Origin: Candidatus Hadarchaeota archaeon
GTDB taxonomy: Archaea; Hadarchaeota; Hadarchaeia; Hadarchaeales; Hadarchaeaceae
Direction: 5' to 3'
Length of the DNA: 32,000 bases
Assembly (NCBI GenBank): GCA_964514965.1
Contig: CAZETV010000002.1
Span: 213,057 to 245,056, forward strand
Shown here: positions 1 to 23,887 of the stretch, one piece after another
How the letters are laid out: the number at the start of each line of letters is the position of its first letter
Position numbering within the stretch: position 1 is the first letter of the stretch
Made by a program: the position numbers and the translations under genes
Notes under the pieces: model-generated
Database searches by the model: none
Seen by the model: only the letters and a program-made list of their open reading frames with translations
Told to the model about the DNA's origin: nothing

Positions 1-121
1 AAGAATGATGCCCACGGTGGTTTTGGGATATCAACCCCCAATAGATATAAGGGATTACCGGTCTGCTATCGAAACTATAGGCTCCGAAGACTCCACAGGA
101 TTCTCCTAGCGAATCAGACAT
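1..121 (-). CDS. purF: Class-II (Ntn) glutamine amidotransferase, PurF-like amidophosphoribosyltransferase; only the N-terminal 40 codons are present (gene runs off the left edge)
   Basis: Own translation of the minus strand from ATG at 121..119: MSDSLGESCGVFGAYSFDSRPVIPYIYWGLISQNHRGHHS. A short propeptide is followed by the CGVFG nucleophile motif and a GL...HRG motif, as in PurF-type enzymes. It starts 30 nt downstream of the carA stop on the same strand. It is absent from the ORF track because it is truncated. Confidence 0.55.
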   Translation of the reverse strand, partial: MSDSLGESCGVFGAYSFDSRPVIPYIYWGLISQNHRGHHS

Positions 122-151
122 GGCAACAAAGTTAGAGCCAGGCGACATTTG

Positions 152-1234
152 TCATCTCCTTTTATTTTTCAACATCTCAACGAAGCGGTCAAAAAGGTAC
201 TGATTATCCTGCGGTCCTGGGGAGCCTTCCGGATGATATTGCACGGAGAAAACAGGGAGTTCCTCGTGATCGATTCCTTCAACCGTGCCGTCGTTGCAGT
301 TGATTTTTGTAACTTTGAATCCAGTACCTTGTAGGCTTTCCGCGTCAATCGCAAAACCGTGGTTCTGCGCGGTTATGTGAACTTTCCCAGTTTGAAGGTC
401 CTTAACTGGCTGATTAGTCCCGCGATGTCCAAACTTGAGTTTAAAAGTCTTCGTTCCAGCAGCCAAAGCCAAAATTTGATTACCCAAACATATACCCATA
501 ATCGGATATTTTTCCATTAGTTGCCCAACGGTCTTGTGGAGGTGGGTCAAAACCGCTGGGTCACCCGGGCCATTTGATATCACGATGCCATCTGGCTCCA
601 ATGCCTCAATTTGGCTCACGTCCATCGTTGCGGGAACAGCGATTACTGAGAGTCCTCTTTTGACTAGACTTCTGAGGATACTTCTTTTAACTCCGCAGTC
701 GATGAGCACGATTTTTAACTTACCCCCATTGCCAAATCTGTTTATTTCCTTCCGAGTTGTTTCCCCAACCAAGTCCTGCTCTGAAATGTCTGGATGCTTC
801 CTAACCTTTTCAAGCAACTCTTCGACATGGGGCTCTTTACCTTCATAAGTAACCATGCCGCATTTCATCGTGCCATATTTTCTAACCTTGATCGTTAACG
901 CGCGAGTATCCACGCTCATGATGCCAGGAATCTTGAATTCCTCCAAGAACTCTTCGAGCTTTTTTGTTCCCTTCCAATGAGATGGCTCCTCGCAGAGTTC
1001 CCTGAGTACCAATCCCTTAACCCAAATTCTATCTGACTCGAACCAATCGGGATGCACTTTGTAGTTCCCAATCAACGGATAGGTAAACATCAGGATTTGC
1101 CCATTGTAAGAAGGGTCCGTCAAAGACTCAACGTAGCCTGTCATCGATGTGTTGAAAACGATTTCACCAAGCGCTTCCCTTTTAGCTCCTAATCCCGCTC
1201 CCCTGAATACTGTTCCATCTTCGAGCACTAGCAT
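152..1234 (-). CDS. carA: Carbamoyl-phosphate synthase small (glutaminase) subunit
   Basis: Track ORF 152..1276. MLVLEDGTVFRGAGLG...IVFNTSMTGYVESLTDPSYNGQI is the canonical CarA N-terminus. The C-terminal half is a triad GATase (GICLGNQ, QYHPE). I prefer the ATG at 1234 (M15 of the track ORF). The track start at 1276 is a TTG that would overlap the nrpR stop by 4 nt. Confidence 0.9.
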   Translation of the reverse strand: MLVLEDGTVFRGAGLGAKREALGEIVFNTSMTGYVESLTDPSYNGQILMFTYPLIGNYKVHPDWFESDRIWVKGLVLRELCEEPSHWKGTKKLEEFLEEFKIPGIMSVDTRALTIKVRKYGTMKCGMVTYEGKEPHVEELLEKVRKHPDISEQDLVGETTRKEINRFGNGGKLKIVLIDCGVKRSILRSLVKRGLSVIAVPATMDVSQIEALEPDGIVISNGPGDPAVLTHLHKTVGQLMEKYPIMGICLGNQILALAAGTKTFKLKFGHRGTNQPVKDLQTGKVHITAQNHGFAIDAESLQGTGFKVTKINCNDGTVEGIDHEELPVFSVQYHPEGSPGPQDNQYLFDRFVEMLKNKRR

Positions 1235-1272
1235 CGCTTTAATGTTCTCGCTCAGATTTGAGTGGTGGGATT

Positions 1273-2259
1273 TCAAATTTTTTTCAACTCCTTAACAGAG
1301 ATGAGGCAGTGCGGTGCAAATGTTTCGATCTTGGCTCCGCGTTCTTTCATGATGACAGCGGGTATCAACCCACCAACCATAGAAATTCCAACTCTGTCCA
1401 TGCTTACTGGAATACCCAGAATGGCTTCATTGGGCTTACCAAAGGCTAAGATTCCACCCCATCCTTTATCTTTTAGGTTTGAAATCACTCGTTGCGTAGC
1501 ATCCCCCGCAGTCATTGGAAGCTCTCTTAAACCAGCGGTTAACATCCCAGAACCGGTCTTGAGGACGCTATCTATTGAAGTCATGCCCCTGTAAACGAAC
1601 ACCTCCAGAGGCGGTATTGTTGTTCCATTGTAGGAAATCAGCTCCACGAAGCGGATGGGTTTGTATTTCAAAAATTGAACCAGACCTCCATAAGTAGGGA
1701 TTATCGGAATACCTGAGTGCATAAGGACGCCATCTATTGTAAGATTGCAAACGGTAAAAATAGCTATTTGCCCTTTTGGAACGGATATTTCGCCATGTTC
1801 TTCTCCTTCATCCAACACTTTGATGTAAGGAGCCAACAGGAGATCCTTTTCGTGGAGGGAATCCAAGACCTTGAGAACCCGATCGTGAAGGGCCTTGTCC
1901 ACGAAGGAAACATTAGCGACCACCTTTCCTTTATCACTCCTAGGTTCGTAAGTCACAGTATACGCTAAAGATAGGAAACGCGTGGTAACGAAGCCCACTC
2001 TTTCATAAGCTAACGCCCTGCCAAGCTCTTTTAGTCCCTCCTGAGTTATCGTTCTCCCACTCCGATCATGCCCATGAATGAGACCTCTAGCTTGTAATAA
2101 TTGAAGGTGATATCTTATCGCCCTCTCGCTGAGCAGAAAACCTCTTCTCCTCAGTTCTCGGCTAAGCATCGTAGAGCCTAAGGGTTTATCATGCCCGCTC
2201 AAAGCCTTTAAAATCTCAATCTCCTTCCTGTTGCTCTCGTTCTGCCCAGAATCAAGCAT
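1273..2259 (-). CDS. nrpR: NrpR-type nitrogen regulatory repressor (winged HTH plus one NrpR/DUF128 domain), paralogue 1
   Basis: 328 aa. The N-terminal HTH (LGSTMLSRELRRRGFLLSERAIRYHLQLLQARGLI) is followed by the NrpR-domain pattern (VPKGQIAIFTVCNLTIDGVL, GGLVQF, PLEVFVYRGMTS, GSGMLTAGLRELP). It is homologous along its whole length to ORF 13940..14941. It is divergent from glnA and co-directional with carA. Confidence 0.85.
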   Translation of the reverse strand: MLDSGQNESNRKEIEILKALSGHDKPLGSTMLSRELRRRGFLLSERAIRYHLQLLQARGLIHGHDRSGRTITQEGLKELGRALAYERVGFVTTRFLSLAYTVTYEPRSDKGKVVANVSFVDKALHDRVLKVLDSLHEKDLLLAPYIKVLDEGEEHGEISVPKGQIAIFTVCNLTIDGVLMHSGIPIIPTYGGLVQFLKYKPIRFVELISYNGTTIPPLEVFVYRGMTSIDSVLKTGSGMLTAGLRELPMTAGDATQRVISNLKDKGWGGILAFGKPNEAILGIPVSMDRVGISMVGGLIPAVIMKERGAKIETFAPHCLISVKELKKI

Positions 2260-2294
2260 GCCCTACCCGAAAATCACTACAACCTCTACCCTTA

Positions 2295-2316
2295 AATAGG
2301 TAAACGGCTACCTATT
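2295..2316. promoter_or_regulatory. Perfect 8-6-8 inverted repeat AATAGGTA-aacggc-TACCTATT, candidate NrpR operator, overlapping a central TTAAATA TATA-like box (2292..2298) in the 71-bp nrpR/glnA divergent intergenic region
   Basis: Read directly: the reverse complement of AATAGGTA is TACCTATT. The core GGTA-N6-TACC has the same 4-6-4 geometry as the GGAA-N6-TTCC NrpR operator described in Methanococcus. It ends 15 nt upstream of the glnA ATG. Confidence 0.45.
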
Positions 2317-2330
2317 ACCGAGGATAGACC

Positions 2331-3659
2331 ATGGTAAGCCACACTAAAGAAGATGTCTTAAAGGTTGTAACTGAGAATGATGTCAGGTTCATAAGGCTTT
2401 GGTTTACCGATATCTTGGGGCAACTGAAGAGTTTTTCCATTACATCAGGGGAATTAGAGACAGCTTTTACCGAAGGGATGGGATTTGATGGTTCGTCCAT
2501 AAAAGGTTTTGCACGAATCGATGAGAGCGATATGATCGCCAAACCGGACCCCACAACCTTTACTATTCTTCCTTGGAGACCAAAAGAAAAAGCTGTTGCG
2601 AGGATGTTTTGTGACATTCTGGAACCGGACGGGAGACCCCACGAAGGTGACCCTCGCTATATATTGAAGCGAAATTTGGAGCGATTGAAGGAAAAAAATT
2701 ATACTTTTTACGTCGGGCCTGAAGTAGAGTATTTTTACTTTAAAGATGCAGAGCATCCAGACGTTTTAGACAAGGGCGGGTACTTTGACCTCACTACCTT
2801 AGATGCAGCGAGCGACTTACGAAGAGACACGATTTTGACATTGGAAGCAATGGGAGTAAAGGCTGAATATAGCCATCACGAAGTCGCGCCTTCTCAACAT
2901 GAGATAGACCTGTACTATATGGACGCACTTACCATGGCCGATAACGTAATGACTTACAAGGTAGTGGTGAAGGAGATTGCACACAAATACGGCTACTATG
3001 CTACCTTCATGCCCAAGCCGATCTTCGGGGAAAATGGAAGTGGGATGCATACTCACCAATCTTTGTTCAAAGGAGACAAAAACGTCTTCTTTGATGCAAG
3101 TGATGAATATCACCTATCCCCAATTGCTAAAGGATACATCGCTGGATTGCTAAAACATGCCCCGGAAATCACCGCCATTACTAACCAATGGGTCAATTCT
3201 TACAAGAGGCTGGTCCCCGGCTATGAGGCGCCAGTTTATCTAAGTTGGGCTCGTCGGAATAGGTCCACGTTAGTAAGAGTGCCCATGTACAAACCAGGGA
3301 AGGAGAAGGCCACACGAATTGAATTCCGTAGTCCAGATCCAGCTTGCAATCCTTATTTGGCATTTGCTGTTATGCTAGCAGCTGGACTCGAGGGAATTGA
3401 GAAAGGATATTCGCTTCCGGGTCCAATCGAAAAAGATGTTTACCACCTCAGCGAAAAAGAAAGAAAAAAACTGGGCGTAGAAACACTTCCGGGAAGCTTG
3501 GTTGAGGCTATAGAATTAGCGGAAAAAAGCGAGCTGATGCACAAGACCTTAGGGGCCCATATTTTCAACAATTTTATCGAGAGCAAAAAGGTTGAGTGGG
3601 ACAATTATAGAAAACAAATCCACCCTTGGGAAGTGAAAGAGTACCTCCCTATCCTGTAG
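2331..3659 (+). CDS. glnA: Glutamine synthetase, type I
   Basis: 442 aa. Shows a typical GSI N-terminal beta-grasp (VRFIRLWFTDILGQLKSF) and catalytic-domain motifs (GSGMHTHQS, NPYLAFAVMLAAGLEG). Confidence 0.95.
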   Translation: MVSHTKEDVLKVVTENDVRFIRLWFTDILGQLKSFSITSGELETAFTEGMGFDGSSIKGFARIDESDMIAKPDPTTFTILPWRPKEKAVARMFCDILEPDGRPHEGDPRYILKRNLERLKEKNYTFYVGPEVEYFYFKDAEHPDVLDKGGYFDLTTLDAASDLRRDTILTLEAMGVKAEYSHHEVAPSQHEIDLYYMDALTMADNVMTYKVVVKEIAHKYGYYATFMPKPIFGENGSGMHTHQSLFKGDKNVFFDASDEYHLSPIAKGYIAGLLKHAPEITAITNQWVNSYKRLVPGYEAPVYLSWARRNRSTLVRVPMYKPGKEKATRIEFRSPDPACNPYLAFAVMLAAGLEGIEKGYSLPGPIEKDVYHLSEKERKKLGVETLPGSLVEAIELAEKSELMHKTLGAHIFNNFIESKKVEWDNYRKQIHPWEVKEYLPIL

Positions 3660-3706
3660 GAATCTGGGGTTTGAAAAGATGAAATCCTCGGGAAAAAGGT
3701 GGAAAA

Positions 3707-4789
3707 ATGAATCGCTATCTGGAAAAAGAAAGAAGTGGCTGTTCCCTTGTGGGGATAATGAACGAACAGGGAAAGAGATTTAGCGGCAAATTAGTGATAA
3801 AATCTATCGCCGTGATGCGCGAACGGGCAAATGGTTTGGGCGCGGGGTTCGCCGGTTATGGTATATACCCCAAATACAGCGATTTTTACGCCTTCCATTT
3901 GCTGTATGATAACGATAAAGCCAAAGATTTAACTGAGGAATACTTAGAAAAAAATTATCTAATCCAGAAAGACGAAGCCATTCCGTCTAGGGAAGTAGAG
4001 GCAATAAAAAATTCACCCTGTATCTGGCGATATTTTCTAAAGATAAAAGAAGAGAGAAAAGAAGAACGTTGCGACCTTGCTGAAGAAGATTTCATTGTCA
4101 AAACAGTGATGGACATAAACACCGGCATTGACGGGGCATTTGTATTCTCAAGTGGGAAAAACATGGGCATCTTTAAAGGCGTAGGTTTTCCTGAAGACAT
4201 CGGCGCCTTTTACAGGTTGGAGGATTATAAAGGCTACAACTGGATTGCCCACGGGAGATTTCCAACAAACACGGGCGCATGGTGGGGGGGAGCTCATCCT
4301 TTAGGGCTTTTAGATTGGTCTGTGGTCCATAACGGAGAGATTTCATCTTACGGGACAAACAGAAGGTTTTTGCTCAACTACGGATATCACTGTGCCCTTT
4401 TTACTGACACAGAGGTAATGACATACCTCTTCGACCTGCTGGCGAGAAAACACAAACTAGATTTTGGGGTGATATCAAAAATTCTCGCCGCCCCATTTTG
4501 GGATGAGATAGATAGAGCCCAGAACGGCGAATCTACGTTGGTTAAGGCCCTGCGCATGACTTATAGCAGCGCTCTGGTTAACGGCCCGTTCTCGGTTATA
4601 GTGGGGCGCAACAGGGAATTGGTGGGCCTAAACGATCGCATCAAGTTAAGGCCGTTAGTAGCTGGAAGAAAAGATGATATGCTCTATATGTCTAGCGAAG
4701 AGTCCGGCATTAGGGAAGTATGTCCTTCGCCTGACAGAGTCTGGGCGCCGAAAGCGGGAGAGCCGGTAATCGGACGGTTGAGGGGGTAA
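3707..4789 (+). CDS. Archaeal-type glutamate synthase, stand-alone class-II glutamine amidotransferase domain (GltB domain 1 equivalent)
   Basis: 360 aa. Short leader then CSLVGI nucleophile motif; GRFPTNT and HNGEISSYG motifs of Ntn amidotransferases. It lies immediately upstream of the FMN-domain gene (3-nt gap). Confidence 0.8.
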
Positions 4790-4791
4790 AA

Positions 4792-6312
4792 ATGCCTATC
4801 ACTTTCATTCCACCCGAATTCATTATCGAAAGAGACGATGAAAAATGTATCACTTGCCAAGTTTGTTGTAGGCAGTGTGCAAACGATGCTCATACCTACG
4901 ATGCTGAAGACGACAAAGTTTACACCGATAATTCTAAATGTGTGGGATGCCATCGCTGCGTGACACTTTGCCCAACCGGTGCACTAAATGTCATACGCAA
5001 TCCTCTGCACTTTAAAGATAATCCCAACTGGACGCCTCGTGCGATAAAAGACATCTATAAGCAGGCCGAGTCTGGCGGGGTGCTGTTGACTGGGATGGGC
5101 TGTGACCGACCCTACTTTGATTACTTTAGCCATATTGTACTCAACGCGTCACAAGTGACTAACCCATCAATCGACCCCCTCCGGGAGCCGATGGAACTAC
5201 GTACCTACATCGGGAAAAAACCAGACAAAGTCGAAATAGAGGGTACTAGCGAGAGGGCCCGACTAAAGACCAAGATACTCCCGCAGCTGGAGTTGAGTAC
5301 TCCAATCCTCTTCTCGGCGATGTCGTTCGGCTCGATAAGTTACAATGCTCATTTGTCTTTGGCTAAGGCAGCCCAAGAGTTCGGGATTTTTTATAACACT
5401 GGAGAGGGCGGATTACACCCGGACCTGTACAAATACGGTAAACACACGATAGTCCAAGTCGCCTCGGGTCGGTTCGGTGTACATCGGGACTACTTGGAGG
5501 TAGCTGCCGCGATAGAGATAAAAATCGGCCAGGGTGCAAAACCGGGAATAGGCGGACATCTCCCGGGAGAGAAAGTAAGCGAACAAATAAGTCGAACCAG
5601 GATGATTCCAGAAGGAACGGATGCCCTTTCCCCAGCCCCGCATCACGACATTTATTCGATAGAGGACCTGCGACAACTCATTTATGCGTTAAAAGAGGCA
5701 ACGAGCTACACGAAACCAGTGGGGGTAAAGATTGCCGCCGTGCATAACGTGGCCCCCATCGCGAGCGGCATAGTTCGTGCGGGTGCTGATTTTGTAGCCA
5801 TTGACGGGATTCGTGGTGGCACTGGTGCCGCCCCTACAGTAATCCGAGACAACGTGGGGATACCGATAGAACTCGCTGCTGCTGTAGTTGACAGCCGTCT
5901 TAGGGAGGAGGGGATTAGACATCGAGCTTCGCTTATAGTTGGTGGCGGTATAAGATCCAGCGCGGATGTCGTAAAGGCTATTGCGTTAGGCGCAGATGCT
6001 GTCTATATCGGGACCGCCTCATTGGTAGCAATGGGTTGCCGCGTTTGCCAAAAATGTTATACTGGAAAATGCAACTGGGGTATCGCTACTCAAGACCCCT
6101 ATTTGACCAAAAGATTGAATCCTGAGATTGGCGCCCGAAGATTGCTAAACTTACTCCGTGCGTGGTCATTGGAAATCAAGGATATGCTCGGCGGCATGGG
6201 CATCAACGCAATTGAAAGCCTGCGGGGGAATAGAGATCAATTAAGAGGCGTTGGACTTACGGATGTGGATTTGAAAATGCTGGGGATAAAGCCAGCTGGA
6301 GAGGCGTGGTAA
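4792..6312 (+). CDS. gltB: Archaeal-type glutamate synthase, FMN-binding synthase domain with N-terminal 2x[4Fe-4S] ferredoxin domain (GltB domain 2 equivalent)
   Basis: 506 aa. Two CxxCxxCxxxCP-like motifs at the N-terminus (CITCQVCCRQC, CVGCHRCVTLCP). The TIM-barrel synthase motifs follow (GEGG, IKIGQGAKPGIGGHLPG, DGIRGGTGAAP, GGGIRSSADVVKAIALGAD). Confidence 0.9.
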   Translation: MPITFIPPEFIIERDDEKCITCQVCCRQCANDAHTYDAEDDKVYTDNSKCVGCHRCVTLCPTGALNVIRNPLHFKDNPNWTPRAIKDIYKQAESGGVLLTGMGCDRPYFDYFSHIVLNASQVTNPSIDPLREPMELRTYIGKKPDKVEIEGTSERARLKTKILPQLELSTPILFSAMSFGSISYNAHLSLAKAAQEFGIFYNTGEGGLHPDLYKYGKHTIVQVASGRFGVHRDYLEVAAAIEIKIGQGAKPGIGGHLPGEKVSEQISRTRMIPEGTDALSPAPHHDIYSIEDLRQLIYALKEATSYTKPVGVKIAAVHNVAPIASGIVRAGADFVAIDGIRGGTGAAPTVIRDNVGIPIELAAAVVDSRLREEGIRHRASLIVGGGIRSSADVVKAIALGADAVYIGTASLVAMGCRVCQKCYTGKCNWGIATQDPYLTKRLNPEIGARRLLNLLRAWSLEIKDMLGGMGINAIESLRGNRDQLRGVGLTDVDLKMLGIKPAGEAW

Positions 6313-6324
6313 GCGGGGATAGAA

Positions 6325-6759
6325 ATGAAACGGATCTACATAAAAGAAGATGTTTGCATTGGATGCCGGCTTTGTGAGATTTATTGTCTGGTTCAACATT
6401 CGAAGTCAAAAAAGATAATCAAAGCCTACAAAGGGGAGTATCCCAAAGCCATCCCTAGGATTTTGGTGGAAGAGAAAGGGCACGTGTCCTTTGCCCTTCA
6501 ATGCCGTCACTGTGAGGATGCCCCATGCATTGACGCTTGCATAACAGGAGCAATGTACCGGGATAAAAAGACGGGAGCCATCCTCTGTGACGAAAAGAAG
6601 TGCGTCGGCTGTTGGATGTGCATCATGGTATGCCCGTTCGGGGTTATAATGAGGGATGTGGAAGGCAAGAAAGTCGCCTCCAAATGCGACTTGTGTTGCG
6701 GGGAGGAAATCCCTGTTTGCGTGGCGAATTGTCCTAATGAAGCGCTGGAATTCAGGTGA
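6325..6759 (+). CDS. 4Fe-4S multicluster ferredoxin-like protein
   Basis: 144 aa with four Cys clusters (CIGCRLCEIYC; CRHCEDAPCIDAC; CVGCWMCIMVCP; CDLCCGEEIPVCVANCP). Confidence 0.8.
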   Translation: MKRIYIKEDVCIGCRLCEIYCLVQHSKSKKIIKAYKGEYPKAIPRILVEEKGHVSFALQCRHCEDAPCIDACITGAMYRDKKTGAILCDEKKCVGCWMCIMVCPFGVIMRDVEGKKVASKCDLCCGEEIPVCVANCPNEALEFR

Positions 6760-6764
6760 AATGA

Positions 6765-8042
6765 ATGACCCACTACGTGATTATCGGAAACTCGGTAGCC
6801 TCCATAGCTGCGGTTGAGGCGATTCGCAATCAGGACAAAGATGGTGCAATAACCATCATCTCCGATGAACCTCACCACGCTTACTCGCGGCCGCTTATTT
6901 CGTACCTACTCGCTGGCAAGGTTTCAGAAGAATCGATGTTATATCGAGATAGAAACTTTTACAAAAAGAATAAGGTCGAGGTTCTCTTGGGCAAGAAAGC
7001 CATCGCCTTAAACCCGAAGAAGAAGTTGATTACTCTCGCTGACAAAAAGAAAATCCATTTCGACAAGCTATTGATTGCAACCGGGGGAACTCCGATTCTC
7101 CCAAAAGTTAAAGGCAAAAATCTAGACGGTGTCTTCACTTTCACCAAATGGGACGATGCCAAGAAGATTAAGGAGTACATCAACAAAAACAAGGTAAAAA
7201 AAGTAATCGTAGTAGGAGGCGGGCTAATAGGACTAAAAACTGTCGAAGGCTTGATTGGGCTTAAAGTAAAGGTGAGTATTGTCGAACTTGCCGACAGGAT
7301 ATTAAGTGCCACTTTCGATAAGAAAGCTTCCAATCTCATAAAGACTTGTTTGAATAAAATGGGTTGTAACGTAATCACCAAAAATACCGTGACTAAAATC
7401 AGGGGCAAAAAGAAAGTAACCAGCGTGATTTTAAAGGATGGATTGAAACTCGATTGCGGCATGGTCATCTTCGCTATCGGCGTTGCTCCAAACGTAGAGA
7501 TCGCCAAAGGTACAGATATCGAAATAAATAAGGGTATCCTTGTCGACAACCACATGCAAACTAATATCCCGGACATCTACGCAGCAGGCGATGTTGTTGA
7601 AGGGCTTGATTTTATTACAGGATTAACTCGCCCTATAGCCATTTGGCCAAACGCTTACAAACAAGGCAACATTGCTGGATCCAACATGGCCGGGGTGCCT
7701 AAAGAATACACGGGTAGTTTTGTTATGAACTCGGTTGAACTTTGCAACATACCAACCATTTCGGTGGGATTAACCGACCCCAAAGAGGACGGATACGAGG
7801 TGCTCGATTATTACGACGAGGAAAATTTAGTATACAGGAAAGTTGTGCTGAAAGGAAACCGGATAGTCGGCGCCATATTTATCAAGAATATCGATAGAGC
7901 GGGAATTTATACAGGTCTCATCATAGAAAAGGTAGATGTTTCGAGCTTTAGAAATCACCTTCTAGAAGAAGATTTTGGTCTGCTATCTCTACCCAAAGAG
8001 TACAGGAAACACTTAGTTTATGGACCGGGGGTTGAGGTATGA
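6765..8042 (+). CDS. FAD/NAD(P)-dependent pyridine-nucleotide-disulfide-family oxidoreductase (NADH-oxidase/NirB-N-terminal-like)
   Basis: 425 aa. Two Rossmann signatures (VIIGNSVASIAA; VIVVGGGLIGLK), the YSRPLISY motif and the AAGDV FAD motif typical of this family. The 3' end overlaps the next gene by 4 nt. Confidence 0.8.
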   Translation: MTHYVIIGNSVASIAAVEAIRNQDKDGAITIISDEPHHAYSRPLISYLLAGKVSEESMLYRDRNFYKKNKVEVLLGKKAIALNPKKKLITLADKKKIHFDKLLIATGGTPILPKVKGKNLDGVFTFTKWDDAKKIKEYINKNKVKKVIVVGGGLIGLKTVEGLIGLKVKVSIVELADRILSATFDKKASNLIKTCLNKMGCNVITKNTVTKIRGKKKVTSVILKDGLKLDCGMVIFAIGVAPNVEIAKGTDIEINKGILVDNHMQTNIPDIYAAGDVVEGLDFITGLTRPIAIWPNAYKQGNIAGSNMAGVPKEYTGSFVMNSVELCNIPTISVGLTDPKEDGYEVLDYYDEENLVYRKVVLKGNRIVGAIFIKNIDRAGIYTGLIIEKVDVSSFRNHLLEEDFGLLSLPKEYRKHLVYGPGVEV

Positions 8043-8770
8043 GGATAGATGCGAAGGGGGTTTATTATAAGGATTTAAATGAGCAAATCCGCCAAGCCGT
8101 CGCTAAAGGGGAAAAGGAAATCATTCTAGACAACATTAACGGACAAAGGTATATCGGTGCTGGGCTAAAGGGTGATATAGATATCAAAATTTTTGGGGTT
8201 CCGGGAAACGATCTCGCCGCTTTCATGGACGGCCCAACTATAACAGTGTTTGCAAATGGACAAGATGGGGTGGGAAATACGATGAATTCTGGTAAAATCG
8301 TGATTCGCGGAGATGCCGGAGATATATTGGGGTATTCCATGCGCGGGGGGAAGATCTTTGTCAAAGGTGATGTTGGTTACCGCGTGGGCATACACATGAA
8401 GTCTTACAAAGAGGCATATCCTGTTGTGATTGTTGGGGGGCGTGCACAAGATTTCCTTGGAGAGTATATGGCAGGGGGATTACTAGTCGTTTTAGGACTA
8501 GAGAAAGGGGAATCACGGATGACTGGGAACTATGTGGGGACAGGTATGCATGGCGGGGTGATGTACATCCGGGGGAAATTGGAGGATTACCAACTTGGGA
8601 AAGAAGTGGAGATACTCAAACCCAATGAACAAGACATTAAAATGTTAGATTGTTATTTAGAAGAATACTGTCACGATTTTAATTTAGATTTAAATGAGAT
8701 TTCAAACGAAGAGTTCGTGAAATTAGTACCTCACTCCTACCGCCCCTATGGGAGGATATACGCTTATTGA
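8039..8770 (+). CDS. Glutamate synthase GXGXG beta-helix domain protein (GltB C-terminal domain equivalent)
   Basis: 243 aa with repeated G-x-G motifs (GQRYIGAGL, GVPGNDLAAFMDG, ANGQDGVGNTMNSGKIVIRGDAGD, GYSMRGGKIFVKGDVGYRVG, EYMAGGLLVVLG). Confidence 0.85.
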   Translation: MRIDAKGVYYKDLNEQIRQAVAKGEKEIILDNINGQRYIGAGLKGDIDIKIFGVPGNDLAAFMDGPTITVFANGQDGVGNTMNSGKIVIRGDAGDILGYSMRGGKIFVKGDVGYRVGIHMKSYKEAYPVVIVGGRAQDFLGEYMAGGLLVVLGLEKGESRMTGNYVGTGMHGGVMYIRGKLEDYQLGKEVEILKPNEQDIKMLDCYLEEYCHDFNLDLNEISNEEFVKLVPHSYRPYGRIYAY

Positions 8771-8798
8771 ATATCTGGTGTTTTCGTTGAAATCTATT

Positions 8799-10268
8799 AT
8801 GAAAATCAAGGATTTCAAAAAGCTAGCAGACCAATTAGATAGACCGTGCATAATACCTCTTATTCACACGGTCGAAGGGTGCGGCGATCCAGCTAAAATT
8901 TATAATAACCTAAGACGCATACACAACCCATCTTACCTCCTCGAGTCTGCAGAAGGACCTGGTGGGTCAGCTCGCTATTCTATTATAGGCTGTAACCCAC
9001 TGCTTCACATCTCCGTGCGCAATGGTACACTCAAGGCTTCAGGTAGAGCAGATGTAGTTAACCTTTCTCAAAAATATGCACGAAAAGTCGCCAAAGCTGA
9101 TGCCTTGGACAAGATGAAGGAAGCAATGTTTTTAAAAATTATGGGGCAAGCAACTGAAAGTGTGCCACGCTTTGTGCTCGGGGTGGTTGGATATGTGGGT
9201 TATGATTTAGTGAGATCTATGACCAACATTGGAGCACACGCTCTCGATGACCGTAACCACCCAGATGTTGAGTTCATGCTTGCAGAAGGGTCCATCACTT
9301 TTGACCATCTTAAGCATCAAACTCACTATTGTTCTCTGACTCTATTTACCGAGGAAATCGATGTAGACAGCTACTATGAAAAAGCATTGTCGAACATCAA
9401 AAAACTCAAGGCCATAAAACCAATATCGGCCGAGCCCCAACGGCAAAAAATCGTGACGCGGTCAAATATCTCGAAATCAAAATTTGAGCATGATGTCAAG
9501 GTGGCAAAGCGATACATCCGGGCAGGAGACATAATCCAAGTCGTGCTTTCGAGACGTATCGAGCTGAAGCCCGCGCCCCCGCTCGACCAGTTTTACATGA
9601 ATCTCCGAAAAATCAATCCTTCCCCTTACATGTTTTTCCTTGATTTTCCGAATCGTTCTCTGATTGGATCAAGCCCGGAAATCTTGGTGAAAGTCGATGG
9701 CAAAAAAGTATTAACTAGGCCCATCGCCGGCACACGACGTCGGGGCAATAACAAAATCGAGGATATCTCTCTCGAGCGTGACCTCCTCGGAGACGAGAAG
9801 GAGCGAGCCGAACACATCATGCTTGTCGATTTAGGAAGGAACGACATCGGCCGCATCTCAGAGTATGGCGCCGTTAAGGTAACTGATTTCATGGAGGTCG
9901 AAAAGTACAGTCATGTCCAGCACATAGTTTCGAATGTTGTTGGGCGAATGAGACCAGAGAAAGACGCTTTTGATGCATTACGTGCGACTTTCCCTGCCGG
10001 CACGGTGACGGGAGCGCCGAAAGTTAGGGCAATGGAGATAATTGATGAACTCGAACCCACGCGACGAGGCATCTATGCTGGAGCAGTCGGATCCTTCAGC
10101 TATAGCGGTCATGCTGACCTCGCGATAACCATCAGGACCATGGTGGCAGAGCGAGGCAGAGGTTATATCCAAGTAGGCGCTGGCATCGTTGCAGATTCTA
10201 TACCGTGGAAAGAACACTACGAAACTGAAAACAAAGCACAGGCGCTTTTGCGTGCGGCGGGTGTTTAA
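8799..10268 (+). CDS. trpE: Anthranilate synthase component I family (TrpE; PabB not excluded)
   Basis: Chorismate-utilising enzyme motifs (LLESAEG...RYSIIG, SPYMFF, GSSPE, RPIAGTRRRG, EHIMLVDLGRND, FPAGTVTGAPKVRAMEII). The track ORF starts at 8748 inside the preceding gene. I prefer the ATG at 8799 (MKIKDFKKLADQL), downstream of the stop at 8770. Confidence 0.8.
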   Translation: MKIKDFKKLADQLDRPCIIPLIHTVEGCGDPAKIYNNLRRIHNPSYLLESAEGPGGSARYSIIGCNPLLHISVRNGTLKASGRADVVNLSQKYARKVAKADALDKMKEAMFLKIMGQATESVPRFVLGVVGYVGYDLVRSMTNIGAHALDDRNHPDVEFMLAEGSITFDHLKHQTHYCSLTLFTEEIDVDSYYEKALSNIKKLKAIKPISAEPQRQKIVTRSNISKSKFEHDVKVAKRYIRAGDIIQVVLSRRIELKPAPPLDQFYMNLRKINPSPYMFFLDFPNRSLIGSSPEILVKVDGKKVLTRPIAGTRRRGNNKIEDISLERDLLGDEKERAEHIMLVDLGRNDIGRISEYGAVKVTDFMEVEKYSHVQHIVSNVVGRMRPEKDAFDALRATFPAGTVTGAPKVRAMEIIDELEPTRRGIYAGAVGSFSYSGHADLAITIRTMVAERGRGYIQVGAGIVADSIPWKEHYETENKAQALLRAAGV

Positions 10269-10838
10269 GTGCGCGTTACGGTGATTGACAACATTGATTC
10301 ATTCGTCTATAACCTTGTGCAATACATCGGGGAGCTAGGAGCGGAACTCCGAGTTTTCACGAACGATGTATCACTCCGTAAGATCATCGATGAAAATCCA
10401 GATAAAATTGTCATTTCTCCAGGCCCCAAGACTCCCGAAGTTGCTGGCGTATCAATCGATGTGATTAAGGAATTTAGCGGCAAAGTCCCGATTCTTGGGG
10501 TATGCCTTGGTCACCAAGCGATTGGCTATGCATTTGGAGCAAATATCGTCCCAGCAAAACGATTGATGCACGGCAAAACTTGTTTTATTGAGCACGATGG
10601 TAGTGAACTCTTTAAAGGAGTGCCGAATCCATTTGAGGCAACACGCTATCATTCTCTAGCGGTCGACCGTGCAACGTTACCGTCCTGCTTACGCATAACG
10701 GCTGAAACTTCCGATGAGCATCACGAAATAATGGGAATAAAACACGCGGAACATCCAACTTTTGGGGTACAATTTCACCCGGAGTCGATACTGACCACAC
10801 ATGGGAAGCTCATGATAAAAAATTTCATCAAGCTATGA
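10269..10838 (+). CDS. trpG: Anthranilate/aminodeoxychorismate synthase glutamine amidotransferase component II
   Basis: 189 aa triad GATase (GVCLGHQ, QFHPES). The GTG start directly abuts the trpE stop. Confidence 0.85.
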   Translation: MRVTVIDNIDSFVYNLVQYIGELGAELRVFTNDVSLRKIIDENPDKIVISPGPKTPEVAGVSIDVIKEFSGKVPILGVCLGHQAIGYAFGANIVPAKRLMHGKTCFIEHDGSELFKGVPNPFEATRYHSLAVDRATLPSCLRITAETSDEHHEIMGIKHAEHPTFGVQFHPESILTTHGKLMIKNFIKL

Positions 10839-10891
10839 GATGTATAGTAATGCAAAAAACTCGAACGGAAAATAAGTGGTAGTGTGTTCAG

Positions 10892-11665
10892 ATGTTAACG
10901 AAACGAATCATCCCCTGCCTCGATATGCGCTGGGGGCGTGTTGTCAAGGGTGTCAAGTTCAAGCAACTACGTGATGCGGGCGATCCAGCTGAGCTAGCAC
11001 ATTGGTATGACGAACAAGGCGCCGATGAGGTGGTGTTCTTGGATATCGGAGCATCACCAGAGGGGAGGGAAACTATGTTTGAAGTGGTCAAGCACACAGC
11101 CAAACAACTATTTATCCCACTAACAGTTGGCGGCGGCATTAATTCGCTCGATCATATCAACCGCATGCTCAAGTCAGGGGCGGACAAGGTGGCGATAAAT
11201 ACTGCTGCAGTTGAGAGCCCTGAACTGGTACGTGAGTCGGCGGAGAAGTTTGGGAGCCAGTGCATCGTCATCGCTATAGACGCCAAGAGTATCGGAGAGC
11301 GAAAGTGGGAGGTTTACACTTATGGCGGCCGCAAGCCAACCGGCGTGGATGTATTGGAATGGGCCAGACAAGTCGAGTCATTAGGAGCAGGCGAAATTCT
11401 GCTTACGAGCATGGACGCCGATGGCACGAAAGCCGGTTATGATTTAGAACTCACCAAAACTGTAGCTAACGCGGTTAACATACCAATCATCGCTTCGGGC
11501 GGCGCTGGCAATCCTCAACACATTTGCGAGGTTCTTACGACTACTGGAGCAGACGCTGCTTTAGCCGCTGGCATTTTTCATTTCGGCGCTTATTCTATCG
11601 GCGACGTTAAAAGTTACTTGCGCGAACAAGGCGTTCCTGTGAGGTTGTGGGTGAGGCAAAAATGA
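10892..11665 (+). CDS. hisF: Imidazole glycerol phosphate synthase, cyclase subunit
   Basis: 257 aa: [12 protein letters not shown]...[52 protein letters not shown]. Confidence 0.95.
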
Positions 11666-12267
11666 CCCGAATAGCAATCGTTGACTATGGTGTCGGCAAT
11701 CTGCATAGCATCCGGCGTGGCCTCGACCTAGCTGGTGCTCAAACCAAAATCACAAATGAACCCGATGAAATCGCTGCAGCTGATGCCATCGTGCTCCCAG
11801 GAGTCGGGGCATTCAAGAGTGCAATGCAGGAGCTTGGGGCTAATCTCGATATCATCAAACAAGCTACTTCTGCAGGCAAGCCTTTATTGGGTATTTGTTT
11901 GGGCATGCAACTATTGCTGGCTCGGAGTGAGGAAGGCGGCAACACAGAGGGCTTAGGACTCATTCCCGGCAAGGTGGTCAAGCTACCGCGTACTCAAAAG
12001 GTGCCGCATATGGGCTGGAATTCTTTAGAAGTTAAACGCGAACACCCATTCTTGGTGGACGTTCAATCTGGCGCCCAAATTTACTTTGTGCATTCCTATC
12101 TCGTGCAGCCTGAAGACGAAAAATCTGTTATCGCGACTAGCACTTACGGTATCGAATTCCCCGCTATTGTGGCACAGGGCACAGTGATTGGGACACAGTT
12201 TCACCCAGAAAAAAGCGGAAGGGTCGGATTACAAATGCTTAAAAATTTTGTTATGATGGTAGAATAA
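11662..12267 (+). CDS. hisH: Imidazole glycerol phosphate synthase, glutamine amidotransferase subunit
   Basis: [44 protein letters not shown]. The ATG at 11662 overlaps the hisF stop (ATGA). The track GTG at 11647 adds 5 unsupported codons. Confidence 0.92.
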
Positions 12268-12291
12268 AGGGCAGCCACCCAAAATGAGGAT

Positions 12292-13842
12292 ATGTTTATG
12301 AAAACCGATGCAATCATTGTAGTTGATTTTGGCGGGCAATATTGTCACCTGATAGGAAGAAGGGTTAGGGAGTACAAAGTTTACTCCGAAGTAGTGCCAT
12401 ATGATGTAACCCCCGAAGAAATCAAAGCACTCAACAAAAAGTTCAATGTTAAGGGGATAATCCTATCTGGCGGACCGTCTAGCATTCACGAAGAAAACGC
12501 TCCTAAATGTAGTCGAGAAATTTTAGAATTGAACATTCCAATCTTAGGTTTATGTTACGGACACCAGCTCATCGCTCATTTTTCTGGGGGGGAAGTAAAA
12601 AGAGCGGACAAGAGGGAGTATGGAATAACAATTGTTATAATCGATAAGCCAATTGGAGTCCTAAAGGGATTAGATGATAAAGAAAAAGTCTGGATGAGCC
12701 ACGGTGATACTGTTTACACGCTTTCACAAGAATACGATATCCTCGCACACACTGAAAATTGTCCTGTAGCTGCATTCAAGCATAAGGAGGAGCCCATTTA
12801 CGGTCTACAGTGGCATCCCGAAGTTATCCATACTGAGAAAGGAGGAAAAATGCTAGAAAATTTCATCTTCGAAATCTGCAAATGCCAAGCGAATTGGAAG
12901 ATGGAAGATTTCGTGAAAAAATCCATCCAAGAAATAAAACAGGTAACAGGTAATAAAAAAGCTATAATCGCTTTAAGCGGGGGTATCGACTCTAGCACGG
13001 CTACAGTATTGGCCGCAAAAGCCATGGGGAAGAACTTAACTGCAGTCTTCGTTGATCACGGATTCATGAGGGAGGGGGAACCTGAATTTATCAAAGATAC
13101 ATTTGAAAAATTTGATTTCAACTTCATTGCGGTGGATGCACGGGAAAGGTTCCTGCGAAGATTAAAAGGGATAATAGACCCCGAGCGGAAAAGGAAGATA
13201 ATTGGAGAAGAATTCATCAAGGTTTTCGAGGAAGTCGCAAGAGAAGTTGGAGCGGAGTACCTTTTGCAAGGAACGATTTATCCGGATAGAATCGAATCAG
13301 GTTTTAGGAAGTATTCCGACAAAATAAAAACCCACCATAACGTTGCGGGCTTACCAACCAAAATTGAATTTCTTGGAGTAGTCGAACCGTTAAGGAACCT
13401 GTATAAAGATGAAGTAAGGAAGGTTGCAAAAAAGTTGAGATTACCAAACGAAATTATCTGGAGACAACCCTTTCCCGGCCCAGGTTTATCCGTGAGAATA
13501 ATTAATGAGGTAACTCCTGAGAAAATCGAAATAATTAAAAAAGCTGACAAAATAGCGACCGAGGAGATAGAGGAAAGCGGATTGAAAGAGGATTTATGGC
13601 AATATTTCGCTGTTTTGACTGACACCAAAAGTACCGGGGTGAAAGGCGATTCAAGAGCGTATGGTTACACGGTCGCTATCAGAGCCGTTAAAAGTAAAGA
13701 AGCTATGACCGCTAACTTTGCAAAAATCCCTTATGATGTGTTGGAGCGGATTTCTACGAAAATAACAAATGAGATACCAGAAGTTACAAGAGTTGTATAT
13801 GATGTCACCCACAAACCACCGGCAACAATTGAATGGGAGTGA
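12292..13842 (+). CDS. guaA: GMP synthase (glutamine-hydrolysing), fused GATase plus ATP-pyrophosphatase form
   Basis: 516 aa. N-terminal triad GATase (GLCYGHQ, QWHPE), PP-loop SGGIDSS, C-terminal dimerisation motifs (HHNVAGLP, PFPGPGL, IEWE end). Confidence 0.95.
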   Translation: MFMKTDAIIVVDFGGQYCHLIGRRVREYKVYSEVVPYDVTPEEIKALNKKFNVKGIILSGGPSSIHEENAPKCSREILELNIPILGLCYGHQLIAHFSGGEVKRADKREYGITIVIIDKPIGVLKGLDDKEKVWMSHGDTVYTLSQEYDILAHTENCPVAAFKHKEEPIYGLQWHPEVIHTEKGGKMLENFIFEICKCQANWKMEDFVKKSIQEIKQVTGNKKAIIALSGGIDSSTATVLAAKAMGKNLTAVFVDHGFMREGEPEFIKDTFEKFDFNFIAVDARERFLRRLKGIIDPERKRKIIGEEFIKVFEEVAREVGAEYLLQGTIYPDRIESGFRKYSDKIKTHHNVAGLPTKIEFLGVVEPLRNLYKDEVRKVAKKLRLPNEIIWRQPFPGPGLSVRIINEVTPEKIEIIKKADKIATEEIEESGLKEDLWQYFAVLTDTKSTGVKGDSRAYGYTVAIRAVKSKEAMTANFAKIPYDVLERISTKITNEIPEVTRVVYDVTHKPPATIEWE

Positions 13843-13939
13843 CAAATTGAACTTTTAGCCACGAAGCTGAAGATTCAATATGGGAAAATTAAATGAGGTC
13901 AATGTTACATATGTTTAAACAATTTTTGGGGGAGAACAC

Positions 13940-14941
13940 ATGATAAGCGAAGAGAAAGTTCAGAGGCTAGTGTTTGAGATTTTACGAATCCTTAAAGAAA
14001 AAGAACATGATGGGCCAGTGGGCGCACGGACGATAGCCAGGGAGCTAGGTAAAAGAGGATTTAAAATAGGAGAAAGAACAGTACGTTATCACCTAAGACT
14101 ACTCGATGCAAAAGGATTTACCAAAAAGATAGGTTCACTAGAAGGGAGGCTCCTCACAGAAGAGGGTAAAGAAGAGATAAAACACACTCTTGTTGGTAAA
14201 CGCGTTGGTTTCGTTATTGGAAAAATTGAGGAACTCATCTACAGAATGAGTTACAACCTCAAAAGTGAGAGAGGCACCATAATCGTTAACATTTCTTTAC
14301 TGGATGCGAGGGAACTTAAAAAAGCGCTTGCTATAATGAAAAAAGTTATCGGTGCAGGGTATGCCTCTAGCCCTTTAATTAAAGTAGCTCATGAAGGGGA
14401 GAACATAGCGGAGGTTAGCGTGCCTAAGGGAAAGATTGGCATAGCCACTATGTGTAGCATTACTATTGACGGGTTGTTGACGAAGGCAGGCGTTCCTGTA
14501 TCCCCAAAATTTGGTGGAGTTTTAGAAATCGAAAATCGAGAACCAAAAAGATTTACCGATGTTATAACCTATCAGGGGTCTTCGTTGGACCCTCTTGAGG
14601 TTTTTGCGTCCAGAAAGATGACCTCATACTTAAATGTGGTAAAAATGGGGTCTGGTAGAATACTCGCTAATCTTAGGGAAATTCCCATGCTCGCGAGAGA
14701 TTCTGCCCAAGATATCATAAACCAAGCTAAAAGGAATGGATTAAATGGTGTTTTGGTTATGGGCGCCCCAGGTGAATCTTTGTATGGGCTCCCCGTTGAT
14801 GTGAACCGAGTGGGCATAGTAATCTTAGGTGGAATTAATCCAATGACAGCGGTTGAAGAAAGTGGCATCGCAATTGAAACAAAACCTATGGAAACGACAT
14901 TAGATATTGCAGAAATGCAGCTTATTCAAAAATGGATGTAA
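13940..14941 (+). CDS. nrpR: NrpR-type regulator (HTH plus one NrpR/DUF128 domain), paralogue 2
   Basis: 333 aa, collinear with ORF 1273..2259. Shared motifs: ERTVRYHLRLLDAKGF; VPKGKIGIATMCSITIDGLL; GGVLEI; PLEVFASRKMTS; GSGRILANLREIP; VNRVGIVILGG. Confidence 0.8.
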   Translation: MISEEKVQRLVFEILRILKEKEHDGPVGARTIARELGKRGFKIGERTVRYHLRLLDAKGFTKKIGSLEGRLLTEEGKEEIKHTLVGKRVGFVIGKIEELIYRMSYNLKSERGTIIVNISLLDARELKKALAIMKKVIGAGYASSPLIKVAHEGENIAEVSVPKGKIGIATMCSITIDGLLTKAGVPVSPKFGGVLEIENREPKRFTDVITYQGSSLDPLEVFASRKMTSYLNVVKMGSGRILANLREIPMLARDSAQDIINQAKRNGLNGVLVMGAPGESLYGLPVDVNRVGIVILGGINPMTAVEESGIAIETKPMETTLDIAEMQLIQKWM

Positions 14942-15697: not shown

Positions 15698-16261
15698 TTA
15701 GTCGGAACTCGGTTCCAACAAATCCTTGCTCAAAATCGCGAAGGTGTCGCCACCAACCTGATAGAAGTTCCGGACTTTTTCAACATTCATAAATCTACCG
15801 TCAAATGCGCCCTCGTTCGCGTACGCTGCGACCACCTCTCCCACGAATAGGGTATGATCTCCCGTGGTAATCTGGTTCACAAGCTTGCACTCGAGATGGG
15901 CAACGCATTCTTCGACGATCGGAGATTTAACGACTTTTGCGGGCTTGGCAGTCAAACCAATCTCGGAGAACTTGTCATGCTCGCGCCCAGAGGCTCTGCC
16001 GCACTTGATTGCTTTGTCGAGGATTTCAACTGCGGGGATATTTATTACGAATTCTTTGGCGCGCGCGATTAGCCCATGTGAGTATCGGCGAGGGGCAACG
16101 AGAACCCCAACAAGCGGCGGGTTCGCGGAGAGTGGCGCGGCCCAAGCGATTGTAATTAAATTAGGCTTTCCAGTCGTAGGGTCGACACAACTGACAAGGA
16201 CGACCAGCCTCGGGTAAAGTAATCTATACGCTTTTTGGCTTGGCACTTCTATTTTTTCCAT
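15698..16261 (-). CDS. Flavin reductase-like (FMN-binding split-barrel) family protein
   Basis: MEKIEVPSQKAYRLLYPRLVVLVSCVD...NLITIAWAAPLSANPPLVGVLVAP...DHTLFVGEVV matches the flavin-reductase domain pattern. The track ORF (to 16390, TTG) reads through tRNA-Glu and is rejected. Candidate starts are ATG 16261 or ATG 16273. Confidence 0.8.
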   Translation of the reverse strand: MEKIEVPSQKAYRLLYPRLVVLVSCVDPTTGKPNLITIAWAAPLSANPPLVGVLVAPRRYSHGLIARAKEFVINIPAVEILDKAIKCGRASGREHDKFSEIGLTAKPAKVVKSPIVEECVAHLECKLVNQITTGDHTLFVGEVVAAYANEGAFDGRFMNVEKVRNFYQVGGDTFAILSKDLLEPSSD

Positions 16262-16275
16262 CCCAATCACCATGG

Positions 16276-16386
16276 TGCCCCGGGCGGGATTCGAACCCGC
16301 GTCACAGCCTTTCTTCGTTAGCAACTCGAAAGGGCTGTATGATTTCGGCGGAGATTTACTCCTTGACCGGCCTACACCACCGGGGC
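16276..16386 (-). tRNA. tRNA-Glu (anticodon TTC) with two introns: about 20 nt in the D-loop/D-stem junction (about 16343..16362) and 16 nt at canonical 37/38 (16311..16326); CCA encoded (16273..16275)
   Basis: Reverse complement: GCCCCGGTGGTGTAGGCCGGTCAA[GGAGTAAATCTCCGCCGAAA]TCATACAGCCCTTTCG[AGTTGCTAACGAAGAA]AGGCTGTGACGCGGGTTCGAATCCCGCCCGGGGCACCA. Removing the bracketed parts gives a 75-nt cloverleaf that matches the archaeal tRNA-Glu pattern (GGTGGTGTAG...CCGG.CAATCAT, loop CTTTCGA). Confidence 0.85.
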
Positions 16387-16514
16387 CCAATACCGTTTAT
16401 GTTTTAAATTATTAAACTCGACTTCTTTGGAACATTTCTCGACCACAAATTTTTTTACTAAGTCGGTGGGGCACCATTATCTGTTCATTTGACAAATCTG
16501 AAATCTATTCAAAT

Positions 16515-22662: not shown

Positions 22663-22663
22663 T

Positions 22664-23281: not shown

Positions 23282-23371
23282 TTTGCCATCCCCTCAGGGC
23301 TCGGCGGTTTTCGCCCGCCCGGGTTCGGGGGCCATATGAGTACCGCCTTTATGCTCGATGCGCCCTCCGTT

Positions 23372-23824: not shown

Positions 23825-23854
23825 GTTGTAAAATAAGTTAGTCAAAGTATAAAT

Positions 23855-23870
23855 AGTTAAGTCATTAACT
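23855..23870. promoter_or_regulatory. Inverted repeat AGTTAA-gtca-TTAACT (plus a related AGTTAGTCA at 23836..23844) flanking a TATAAAT box (23848..23854); candidate MarR operator in a divergent promoter
   Basis: Read directly. The TATA-like box lies about 24-30 nt upstream of the marR ATG, which implies a leaderless or near-leaderless mRNA. Confidence 0.4.
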
Positions 23871-23887
23871 GTTTCTTTGGTTATACC

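Follow-up and report, generated by a model that had tools for sequence, protein, structure and literature searches.

Operons usually group the steps of one pathway. The 32,000-nucleotide stretch analysed here (the window; Candidatus Hadarchaeota archaeon, GenBank assembly GCA_964514965.1, contig CAZETV010000002.1, positions 213,057 to 245,056) raises the question of why about 15 genes from seven pathways, united only by glutamine amide nitrogen, lie together beside a glutamine synthetase (GS) gene, glnA, and a gene for NrpR, a nitrogen-sensing repressor. A preliminary description, based on the letters of the window, had proposed a regulon grouped by shared substrate and controlled by two NrpR paralogues. 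The window is archaeal, with genes for phosphopantothenate synthetase and aEF-1α and intron-containing tRNAs, and the nearest named relatives of the second NrpR (NrpR-B) and of TrpE come from Hadarchaeota, Hadarchaeales and MSBL1, those of TrpE being Hadarchaeaceae/Hadarchaeales. The explanation we favour, with a probability of about one half, is that the block is a lineage-specific (roughly genus-level) enlargement of an NrpR-controlled nitrogen-assimilation locus formed by glnA and the genes of glutamate synthase (GOGAT).

The block comprises 17 genes over about 18 kb, in the order pyrG, purF, carA and nrpR-A on the minus strand and then, diverging from nrpR-A, glnA, the GOGAT genes, trpEG, hisFH, guaA and nrpR-B on the plus strand. 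About 15 of the 17 consecutive genes are glutamine-related, encoding enzymes that make or use glutamine or subunits of such enzymes, and the other two encode the regulators. Sequence to the left of the window was read from an independent Logan assembly of SRR14802574 (L002), which represents the same contig and agrees with the window at every shared base (100 % identity). Beyond pyrG it carries the genes for ribosomal proteins L18e, L13 and S9, followed by rpoN. The six amidotransferase enzymes of the preliminary description are all present, but the count is seven, as PyrG, encoded to the left of window base 1, joins CarA, PurF, TrpEG, HisFH, GuaA and GOGAT, with seven pathways represented. 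The block had also been described as bracketed by its two nrpR genes, which is inexact: it continues to pyrG, and nrpR-A is therefore not a left bracket but sits inside the block at the point of divergence. Neither the 32 kb of the window nor the 10 kb adjoining it on the left has carB, trpDCFBA, guaB or other his or pur genes, which bears out the earlier remark that the pathway partners are missing.

Genes were assigned by Pfam and NCBIfam profile searches, with bit scores given against the family cutoff. Strong profile support was obtained at the expected place for every gene previously named, and the scores rule out chance or misannotation as the source of the gene set. On the minus strand, carA (152–1276), encoding the glutaminase small subunit of carbamoyl-phosphate synthase, has CPSase_sm_chain and GATase domains (TIGR01368, 497 versus 307). 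Positions 1–148 hold the 5′ end (49 codons) of a gene of the purF (amidophosphoribosyltransferase) family that runs on to the left of the window. The full gene (L002 11129–12637) encodes 502 aa that align end to end with TIGR01134 (330 bits versus a cutoff of 350), and its translation has a cysteine of the N-terminal nucleophile (Ntn) type ahead of GVFG (…ESCGVFG…; Cys-Gly-Val-Phe-Gly). The CTP synthase gene pyrG (L002 12726–14351, minus strand of the window) scored 822 bits.

On the plus strand, glnA (2331–3659) encodes a type I GS by Pfam and NCBIfam (TIGR00653, 557 versus 429). The split GOGAT that follows consists of a class II (Ntn) glutaminase subunit, gltB1 (3707–4789; GATase_2/6/7), an FMN/synthase subunit with an N-terminal 2x[4Fe-4S] domain (4792–6312; Glu_synthase 486 bits and Fer4), a polyferredoxin (6325–6759; Fer4_11), an FAD/NAD(P) oxidoreductase (6765–8042; Pyr_redox_2) and a GXGXG-domain subunit (8039–8770; PF01493, 116 bits). 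The polyferredoxin and the oxidoreductase are presumed electron-donor subunits, suggesting that the donor may be NAD(P)H or ferredoxin; the best named match is PadH-like (318 bits versus a cutoff of 475). The previous statement that every enzyme of the block makes glutamine or carries an amidotransferase domain does not hold for these Fer4 and Pyr_redox_2 genes, which have no glutamine chemistry of their own.

The GOGAT genes are followed by trpE (anthranilate synthase I; 8748/8799–10268; TIGR00564, 509 versus 518; TrpE-arch, 506 versus 512), trpG (anthranilate synthase II; 10269–10838; profile match), hisF (10892–11665; TIGR00735, 386 versus 295), hisH (11647–12267; TIGR01855, 251 versus 105) and guaA (12292–13842; NF000848, 717 versus 400). 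HisF and HisH together form imidazole glycerol phosphate synthase, and guaA encodes the fused, bacterial-style form of glutamine-hydrolysing GMP synthase. Scores were above the equivalog cutoffs for carA, glnA, hisF, hisH, guaA and pyrG, while PurF and TrpE gave full-length profile alignments with scores slightly under the cutoff. For TrpE, the comparison with orthologues at 61–84 % identity, all of them in trpEGDCFBA, favours this assignment over PabB. The longest TrpE open reading frame (ORF) starts at 8748 and so shares 23 bp with the GXGXG gene; the true start is probably the methionine at 8799, as in the gene call of a congener (489 aa), which leaves a gap of 28 bp. Class I triad motifs were read in the translations of CarA (GICLGNQ/HPE), TrpG (GVCLGHQ/HPES), HisH (GICLGMQ/HPEK) and GuaA (GLCYGHQ/HPEV). 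GC content at third codon positions (GC3) was lowest in the block for nrpR-B (0.37) and guaA (0.41, the lowest of its enzyme genes), with the other genes at 0.44–0.56.

The genes are closely packed. Gaps from glnA to guaA range from −23 to 53 bp, the largest lying between trpG and hisF; nrpR-A and carA overlap by 4 bp, and carA and purF are separated by 3 bp. Larger gaps are found only between purF and pyrG (88 bp) and between guaA and nrpR-B (97 bp). Promoters and terminators were sought by TATA and T-run scans, which are suited to an archaeon, rather than with a bacterial sigma-70 scanner. From the glnA promoter up to the guaA/nrpR-B gap, these scans detected neither a near-consensus TATA box nor an intergenic T5 run. 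The guaA/nrpR-B gap has a TATA-like TTTAAACA at 13914–13921, which is probably the own box of nrpR-B, and there are AT-rich stretches ahead of pyrG; both pyrG and nrpR-B may carry promoters of their own. Apart from three tRNAs, Rfam at gathering thresholds returned no glutamine riboswitch or other known RNA element in the block. The layout fits two divergent units, each presumably polycistronic, around one operator.

This putative operator lies in the 71-bp spacer between nrpR-A and glnA. The only near-consensus TATA of the spacer, and of the block as a whole (CTTAAATA, 2291–2298), is overlapped by three bases by a perfect palindrome with 7-bp arms, ATAGGTA-AACGGC-TACCTAT (2296–2315), which ends 15 bp ahead of the glnA ATG. 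The GGTA-N6-TACC motif suggested for a promoter scan in the preliminary description was thus found at the head of glnA, with a chance expectation of 0.24 per window. Relative to the published NrpR operator of Methanococcus maripaludis, GGAA-N6-TTCC (PMC2723118), one base is changed in each half-site, symmetrically. The congener (L110) keeps both arms, with AAAGGT as spacer in the window orientation where the window has AACGGC. Conserved arms around a changed spacer are the pattern expected of a protein-binding palindrome under selection. The layout of TATA box then operator is shared by the window, L110 and L087. Three other Hadarchaeota loci (L011, L085 and L087), which have NrpR-B orthologues, carry ATAGGAA-N6-TTCCTAT after a TATA box and before gltB1, glnA and nrpR; this is the exact published core, with flanks identical to those in the window. 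A second perfect palindrome with 7-bp arms, AGAGGTA-N6-TACCTCT, was identified at 4411–4430, inside the gltB1 coding sequence over conserved TDTEV codons; it could serve as an auxiliary operator or be there by coincidence.

Assignment of both regulators to the NrpR family, as proposed previously, was confirmed by their domains. Each consists of a winged helix-turn-helix (HTH) and a single NrpR regulatory domain (NRD). NrpR-A (1273–2259, minus strand) scored 68 bits with the HTH_12 family (PF08461, cutoff 21.4) and 260 bits with NRD1_2 (PF01995, cutoff 25); NrpR-B (13940–14941, plus strand) scored 75 and 315 bits. Both proteins also matched the solved NrpR domain of MJ0159 (PDB 3NEK) along its full length, NrpR-A with 105 bits and NrpR-B with 116 bits. 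The two proteins share 39–40 % identity and belong to different clades, the nearest relatives of NrpR-A being in Bathyarchaeia (61–68 % identity) and NrpR-B belonging to a Hadarchaeota/MSBL1 clade. Across the loci with an operator-like palindrome, its core follows the clade of the adjoining regulator: loci of the NrpR-A clade carry GGTA/TACC (window, L110) or CGGCA-N6-TGCCG (L111), that is a GGTA or GGCA core, and those of the NrpR-B clade carry GGAA/TTCC (L011, L085, L087). There is also a consistent difference between the clades in the HTH and wing (LLSERAIRYHLQ…HGHD-RSGR versus KIGERTVRYHLR…KKxGSLEGR). This points to NrpR-A as the probable user of the glnA operator. The earlier idea of dual NrpR control was not borne out, as the block has one promoter-proximal operator, of the NrpR-A-clade type, and no GGAA-N6-TTCC site, the kind present beside NrpR-B orthologues, occurs anywhere in the window, where NrpR-B has no recognisable site. 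A stand-alone gene of about 80 aa with an AsnC_trans_reg (RAM) domain lies directly before NrpR-B orthologues in three loci (L083 9694–9933, L115 5657–5902 and L118 940–1185), whereas nrpR-B of the window has no such gene upstream.

To place the block among relatives, the GXGXG protein was used as a query with one genome per species, giving 80 loci spread over many phyla of bacteria and archaea. A glnA plus split-GOGAT module was widespread among them, with the glutaminase gene first, a conserved order and 55–80 % identity, and clearly forms a unit that is both conserved and mobile. The Fer4 and Pyr_redox_2 genes were both inside the module at about half of the loci. Most of the 80 loci had the module only; in the Hadarchaeota L011, L085 and L087 it was accompanied by nrpR (and by amt/glnB in L085) and no other amidotransferase genes. 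A TrpE query against metagenomes gave 22 loci at 45–84 % identity, and in all 22 trpE-trpG was followed by trpD, and by trpC-F-B-A where the contig permitted, often with chorismate pathway genes upstream of trpE. A canonical trpEGDCFBA was also present in L120 (75 % identity). Orthologues of NrpR-B at 83–84 % identity were in other contexts, either beside riboflavin genes or beside a different GOGAT type together with a small AsnC-like gene. Broad conservation of the supercluster was ruled out by the GXGXG loci, the TrpE loci and these NrpR-B contexts. In samples of the congener (L115–L117, SRR34261171-173), another type of split GOGAT, in the order ACT plus GATase_6/7, GXGXG and Glu_synthase plus Fer4, precedes an NrpR-B orthologue (84 %).

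Two sets of junctions were nevertheless recovered from a congener, whose contigs from runs SRR34261171 and SRR34261173 have 91–92 % nucleotide identity to the window. One contig (L110, 91 %) carries nrpR-A-carA-purF-pyrG-L18e-L13, and another (L119) carries the end of GOGAT, Fer4, the oxidoreductase, GXGXG, trpE and trpG. Because the congener keeps these junctions and more distant relatives do not, the supercluster is real and heritable but recent, having been assembled between the ~75 % and ~91 % identity levels. As it formed, trpEG was removed from a canonical trp operon. The synteny comparison proposed in the preliminary description therefore gave a divided answer: parts of the block are kept in the ~92 %-identical congener only, and the genes are dispersed in all more distant Hadarchaeota examined. 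Chance juxtaposition can be excluded, since about 15 of 17 genes are glutamine-related and the two junction sets recur in independent assemblies.

Grouping by substrate was also detected, to a lesser extent, elsewhere. Eight of the 80 GXGXG loci had at least one of carA, trpEG, hisFH and guaA in their flanks, against an expectation of about 1.2–2.4 (Poisson P=3e-5 to 3e-3, depending on the assumed genome size). Excluding Fe-S/redox, sensor (GAF) and regulator families, class I glutamine amidotransferase (PF00117) was the commonest family among immediate same-strand neighbours (5 of 110). The clearest case was a Thermodesulfobacteriota metagenome-assembled genome (MAG; L062, JBDOIB010000243.1, 43–11196) with glnA, five GOGAT genes, guaA, hisH, hisF and nadE, in which NadE is of the glutamine-dependent type (CN_hydrolase plus NAD_synthase). 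Its gene order and the 44–63 % identities of the appended genes indicate a probable independent assembly, which suggests convergent grouping by substrate. GOGAT-hisH-hisF is present in another Hadesarchaeon (L045). Entire pathway operons adjoin the module at some loci (the trp operon in L015, probably carAB in L010), and the trend is therefore modest. The proposed grouping by substrate, with genes set apart from their pathways, stands, in that relatives keep trpEG within trpEGDCFBA and the bacterial MAG shows a parallel grouping.

Under the favoured explanation, the ancestral core would have been nrpR, glnA and the split GOGAT, as in other Hadarchaeota. To this core would have been recruited the glutamine users CarA, PurF, PyrG, TrpEG, HisFH and GuaA, giving, with GOGAT, seven pathways. 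Two divergent strings, nrpR-A-carA-purF(-pyrG) and glnA-GOGAT-trpEG-hisFH-guaA(-nrpR-B), would share the 71-bp region. When nitrogen is sufficient and 2-oxoglutarate low, an NrpR dimer or tetramer, most likely of NrpR-A, would occupy ATAGGTA-N6-TACCTAT. The operator separates the TATA box from the glnA start and falls on the transcription factor B recognition element (BRE) side of the leftward promoter, and binding is predicted to damp both strings. When nitrogen is limited and 2-oxoglutarate high, NrpR would be released, and the capacities for making and for spending glutamine would rise together. Control would be expected to be modulatory rather than on/off, since growth always depends on the amidotransferases, and would resemble that of the single-operator glnA of M. 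maripaludis.

Several observations weigh against this explanation. Strong repression of essential enzymes under nitrogen sufficiency would be harmful, so that the logic of such regulation is not obvious. The known methanogen NrpR regulon is without biosynthetic amidotransferases (PMC2723118). The block has a single promoter-proximal operator, with none found upstream of hisF, pyrG or nrpR-B, and weak internal promoters are possible, for example in the 53-bp trpG-hisF and 88-bp purF-pyrG gaps. The set of amidotransferases is incomplete, with purQ/L, glmS, asnB, pdxT and gatD/A not in the block. The gene that lies divergently to nrpR-A in the congener (L110 1–51) begins MGNRMAILKTRSCLECE, which is not a GlnA N-terminus, even though the TATA box and operator are kept; the 17 codons available for comparison weakly resemble an unannotated ORF in L083. 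In that species, the two arms of the cluster may therefore be unjoined, and their joining may be specific to the species of the window. The arrangement is also limited to a very narrow lineage, as a recent neutral rearrangement would be.

Some of these points lead to a different account, in which the clustering is real and selected but NrpR acts on glnA and GOGAT only, the appended genes being expressed from internal constitutive promoters or by read-through. Togetherness would then result from balanced dosage, co-inheritance or co-localized translation with hand-over of glutamine from GS. The chief argument for this account, which we consider somewhat unlikely, is that essential biosynthetic genes should stay on when nitrogen is plentiful, to which may be added the absence of such enzymes from the known NrpR regulon. 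The gaps of 53, 88 and 97 bp could hold promoters, given the TTTAAACA at 13914 and the AT-rich DNA before pyrG. The gaps from glnA to guaA, however, are without a near-consensus TATA or a T-run terminator, and carA (4-bp overlap) and purF (3-bp gap) would share the nrpR-A promoter beside the operator. If the genes had come together by a recent neutral rearrangement in a single small-genome lineage, their grouping would mean nothing functionally. This would account for the restriction of the arrangement to organisms of at least about 91 % identity, for the dispersal of the genes in relatives at 57–84 % protein identity and for a nrpR-A/glnA junction that seems not to be common to the congener. 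At least five separate relocations would be needed, though, all bringing glutamine enzymes to a single place and splitting these from their partners (trpEG from trpDCFBA, carA from carB), which is vanishingly unlikely by chance; with the enrichment of amidotransferase genes beside the module and the independent glnA-GOGAT-guaA-hisHF-nadE of the bacterial MAG, this makes neutrality very improbable.

The block might instead be a horizontally acquired accessory island of second copies, feeding for example a specialized pathway, with housekeeping copies elsewhere in normal operons. In favour of this, NrpR-A has its closest relatives in Bathyarchaeia and NrpR-B and TrpE have theirs in Hadarchaeota, those of the GOGAT GXGXG protein (55–65 %) are mostly bacterial, with neighbouring glnA copies at up to 63–75 % identity, and guaA is of the fused type with low GC3. 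On the other hand, the nearest TrpE relatives are Hadarchaeaceae/Hadarchaeales with canonical trp operons, which fits vertical descent followed by relocation; hisF, hisH, carA, pyrG and guaA score as ordinary equivalogs, pyrG adjoins core ribosomal protein genes, and the GC3 of the block is neither uniform nor clearly foreign. We therefore give the island little credence. The source is metagenomic, and the trpG-hisF, hisH-guaA, guaA-nrpR-B and nrpR-A/glnA junctions were seen in contigs of one sample only, which would be compatible with an assembly chimera of unrelated contigs. Against this, the Logan assembly of SRR14802574 is 100 % identical over shared bases, the two other junction sets recur at 91–92 % identity in SRR34261171 and SRR34261173, and a chimera would not pick out glutamine enzymes; such an artefact is very improbable for the block as a whole. 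It was ruled out for the two recurring sets, nrpR-A-carA-purF-pyrG-L18e (L110) and Fer4-Pyr_redox-GXGXG-trpE-trpG (L119).

Beyond the block, the stretch 21154–26204 is compositionally distinct (GC3 0.64–0.76), with genes for radical S-adenosylmethionine (SAM)/SPASM and B12-binding domain proteins, a MarR regulator and a 606-aa major facilitator superfamily transporter. It is adjoined by a B12-binding radical SAM gene (19725–21113) with a GC3 of 0.44. Two long tRNA genes, presumably intron-containing, lie at 16276–16386 and 26518–26613, both on the minus strand. The former was found by Rfam only and is overlapped by the 5′ extension of a flavin-reductase ORF (15698–16390), which, because of this overlap, probably starts further downstream.

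Parts of this locus are already known, namely the NrpR family, the operator type and the glnA/GOGAT module. In the methanogen NrpR regulon (nif, glnA and glnK-amtB of M. maripaludis; NrpRI of Methanosarcina mazei), as here, a regulator of the winged HTH plus NRD family is tied to GS and GOGAT, and a single palindrome with 4-bp cores and a 6-bp spacer lies at the TATA box or transcription start site of glnA. The block differs in its core, GGTA/TACC rather than GGAA/TTCC, and in having two HTH-bearing single-NRD paralogues of different clades. M. maripaludis has one double-NRD NrpR protein and M. mazei has an HTH-less NrpRII. The presumptive units of the block further add six biosynthetic amidotransferase enzymes, which are outside any described NrpR regulon. 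The segment 2331–8770 is a typical archaeal-type split GOGAT module (GATase_2, Glu_synthase plus Fer4, Fer4, Pyr_redox_2 and GXGXG), with separate class II glutaminase, FMN synthase and GXGXG genes in one putative operon. Elsewhere the module mostly ends after GXGXG or glnA and has regulators as neighbours (GAF kinases, NtrC, PII/Amt), whereas six more glutamine-user genes are appended on the same strand in the window. The Thermodesulfobacteriota locus is alike in continuing from glnA-GOGAT into guaA, hisH, hisF and glutamine-dependent nadE away from pathway operons, and unlike in belonging to a bacterium without NrpR, in its order guaA-hisH-hisF and in having no trpEG, carA, purF or pyrG. The PurR regulon of Escherichia coli (purF, guaBA, carAB, pyrC/D and glnB) likewise places amidotransferases of several pathways under one repressor, but its genes are dispersed, lie with their pathway partners, respond to purines and are not clustered with glnA. 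A search of the literature on amidotransferase superclusters and on nitrogen regulation in Hadarchaeota found nothing relevant. Three features appear to be undescribed: the set of amidotransferases appended to the module, the pair of HTH-bearing single-domain paralogues of different clades and the symmetric variant of the operator.

A more far-reaching possibility, which we put forward only tentatively and consider doubtful, is that the block is a ‘glutamine economy’ unit, in which GS as the sole producer of glutamine, the GS-GOGAT cycle and most of the major spenders are placed on one control region gated by 2-oxoglutarate and NrpR. Such a unit would have arisen convergently in an archaeon and a bacterium of the sulfate-reducer type, perhaps with physical coupling of GS to glutaminases by co-translational assembly or hand-over of glutamine. 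If so, it would set the supply of and demand for amide nitrogen jointly.

If the genes of the block are co-regulated, the known NrpR regulon would cover the distribution of nitrogen as well as its acquisition (nif, amt, glnA), and the block would be a natural case of supply-and-demand control over one metabolite pool. The symmetric operator variant, together with a distinct NrpR clade, offers a system for the study of regulator specificity. The block would also provide a handle on the nitrogen physiology of Hadarchaeota, an uncultured group of the deep subsurface.

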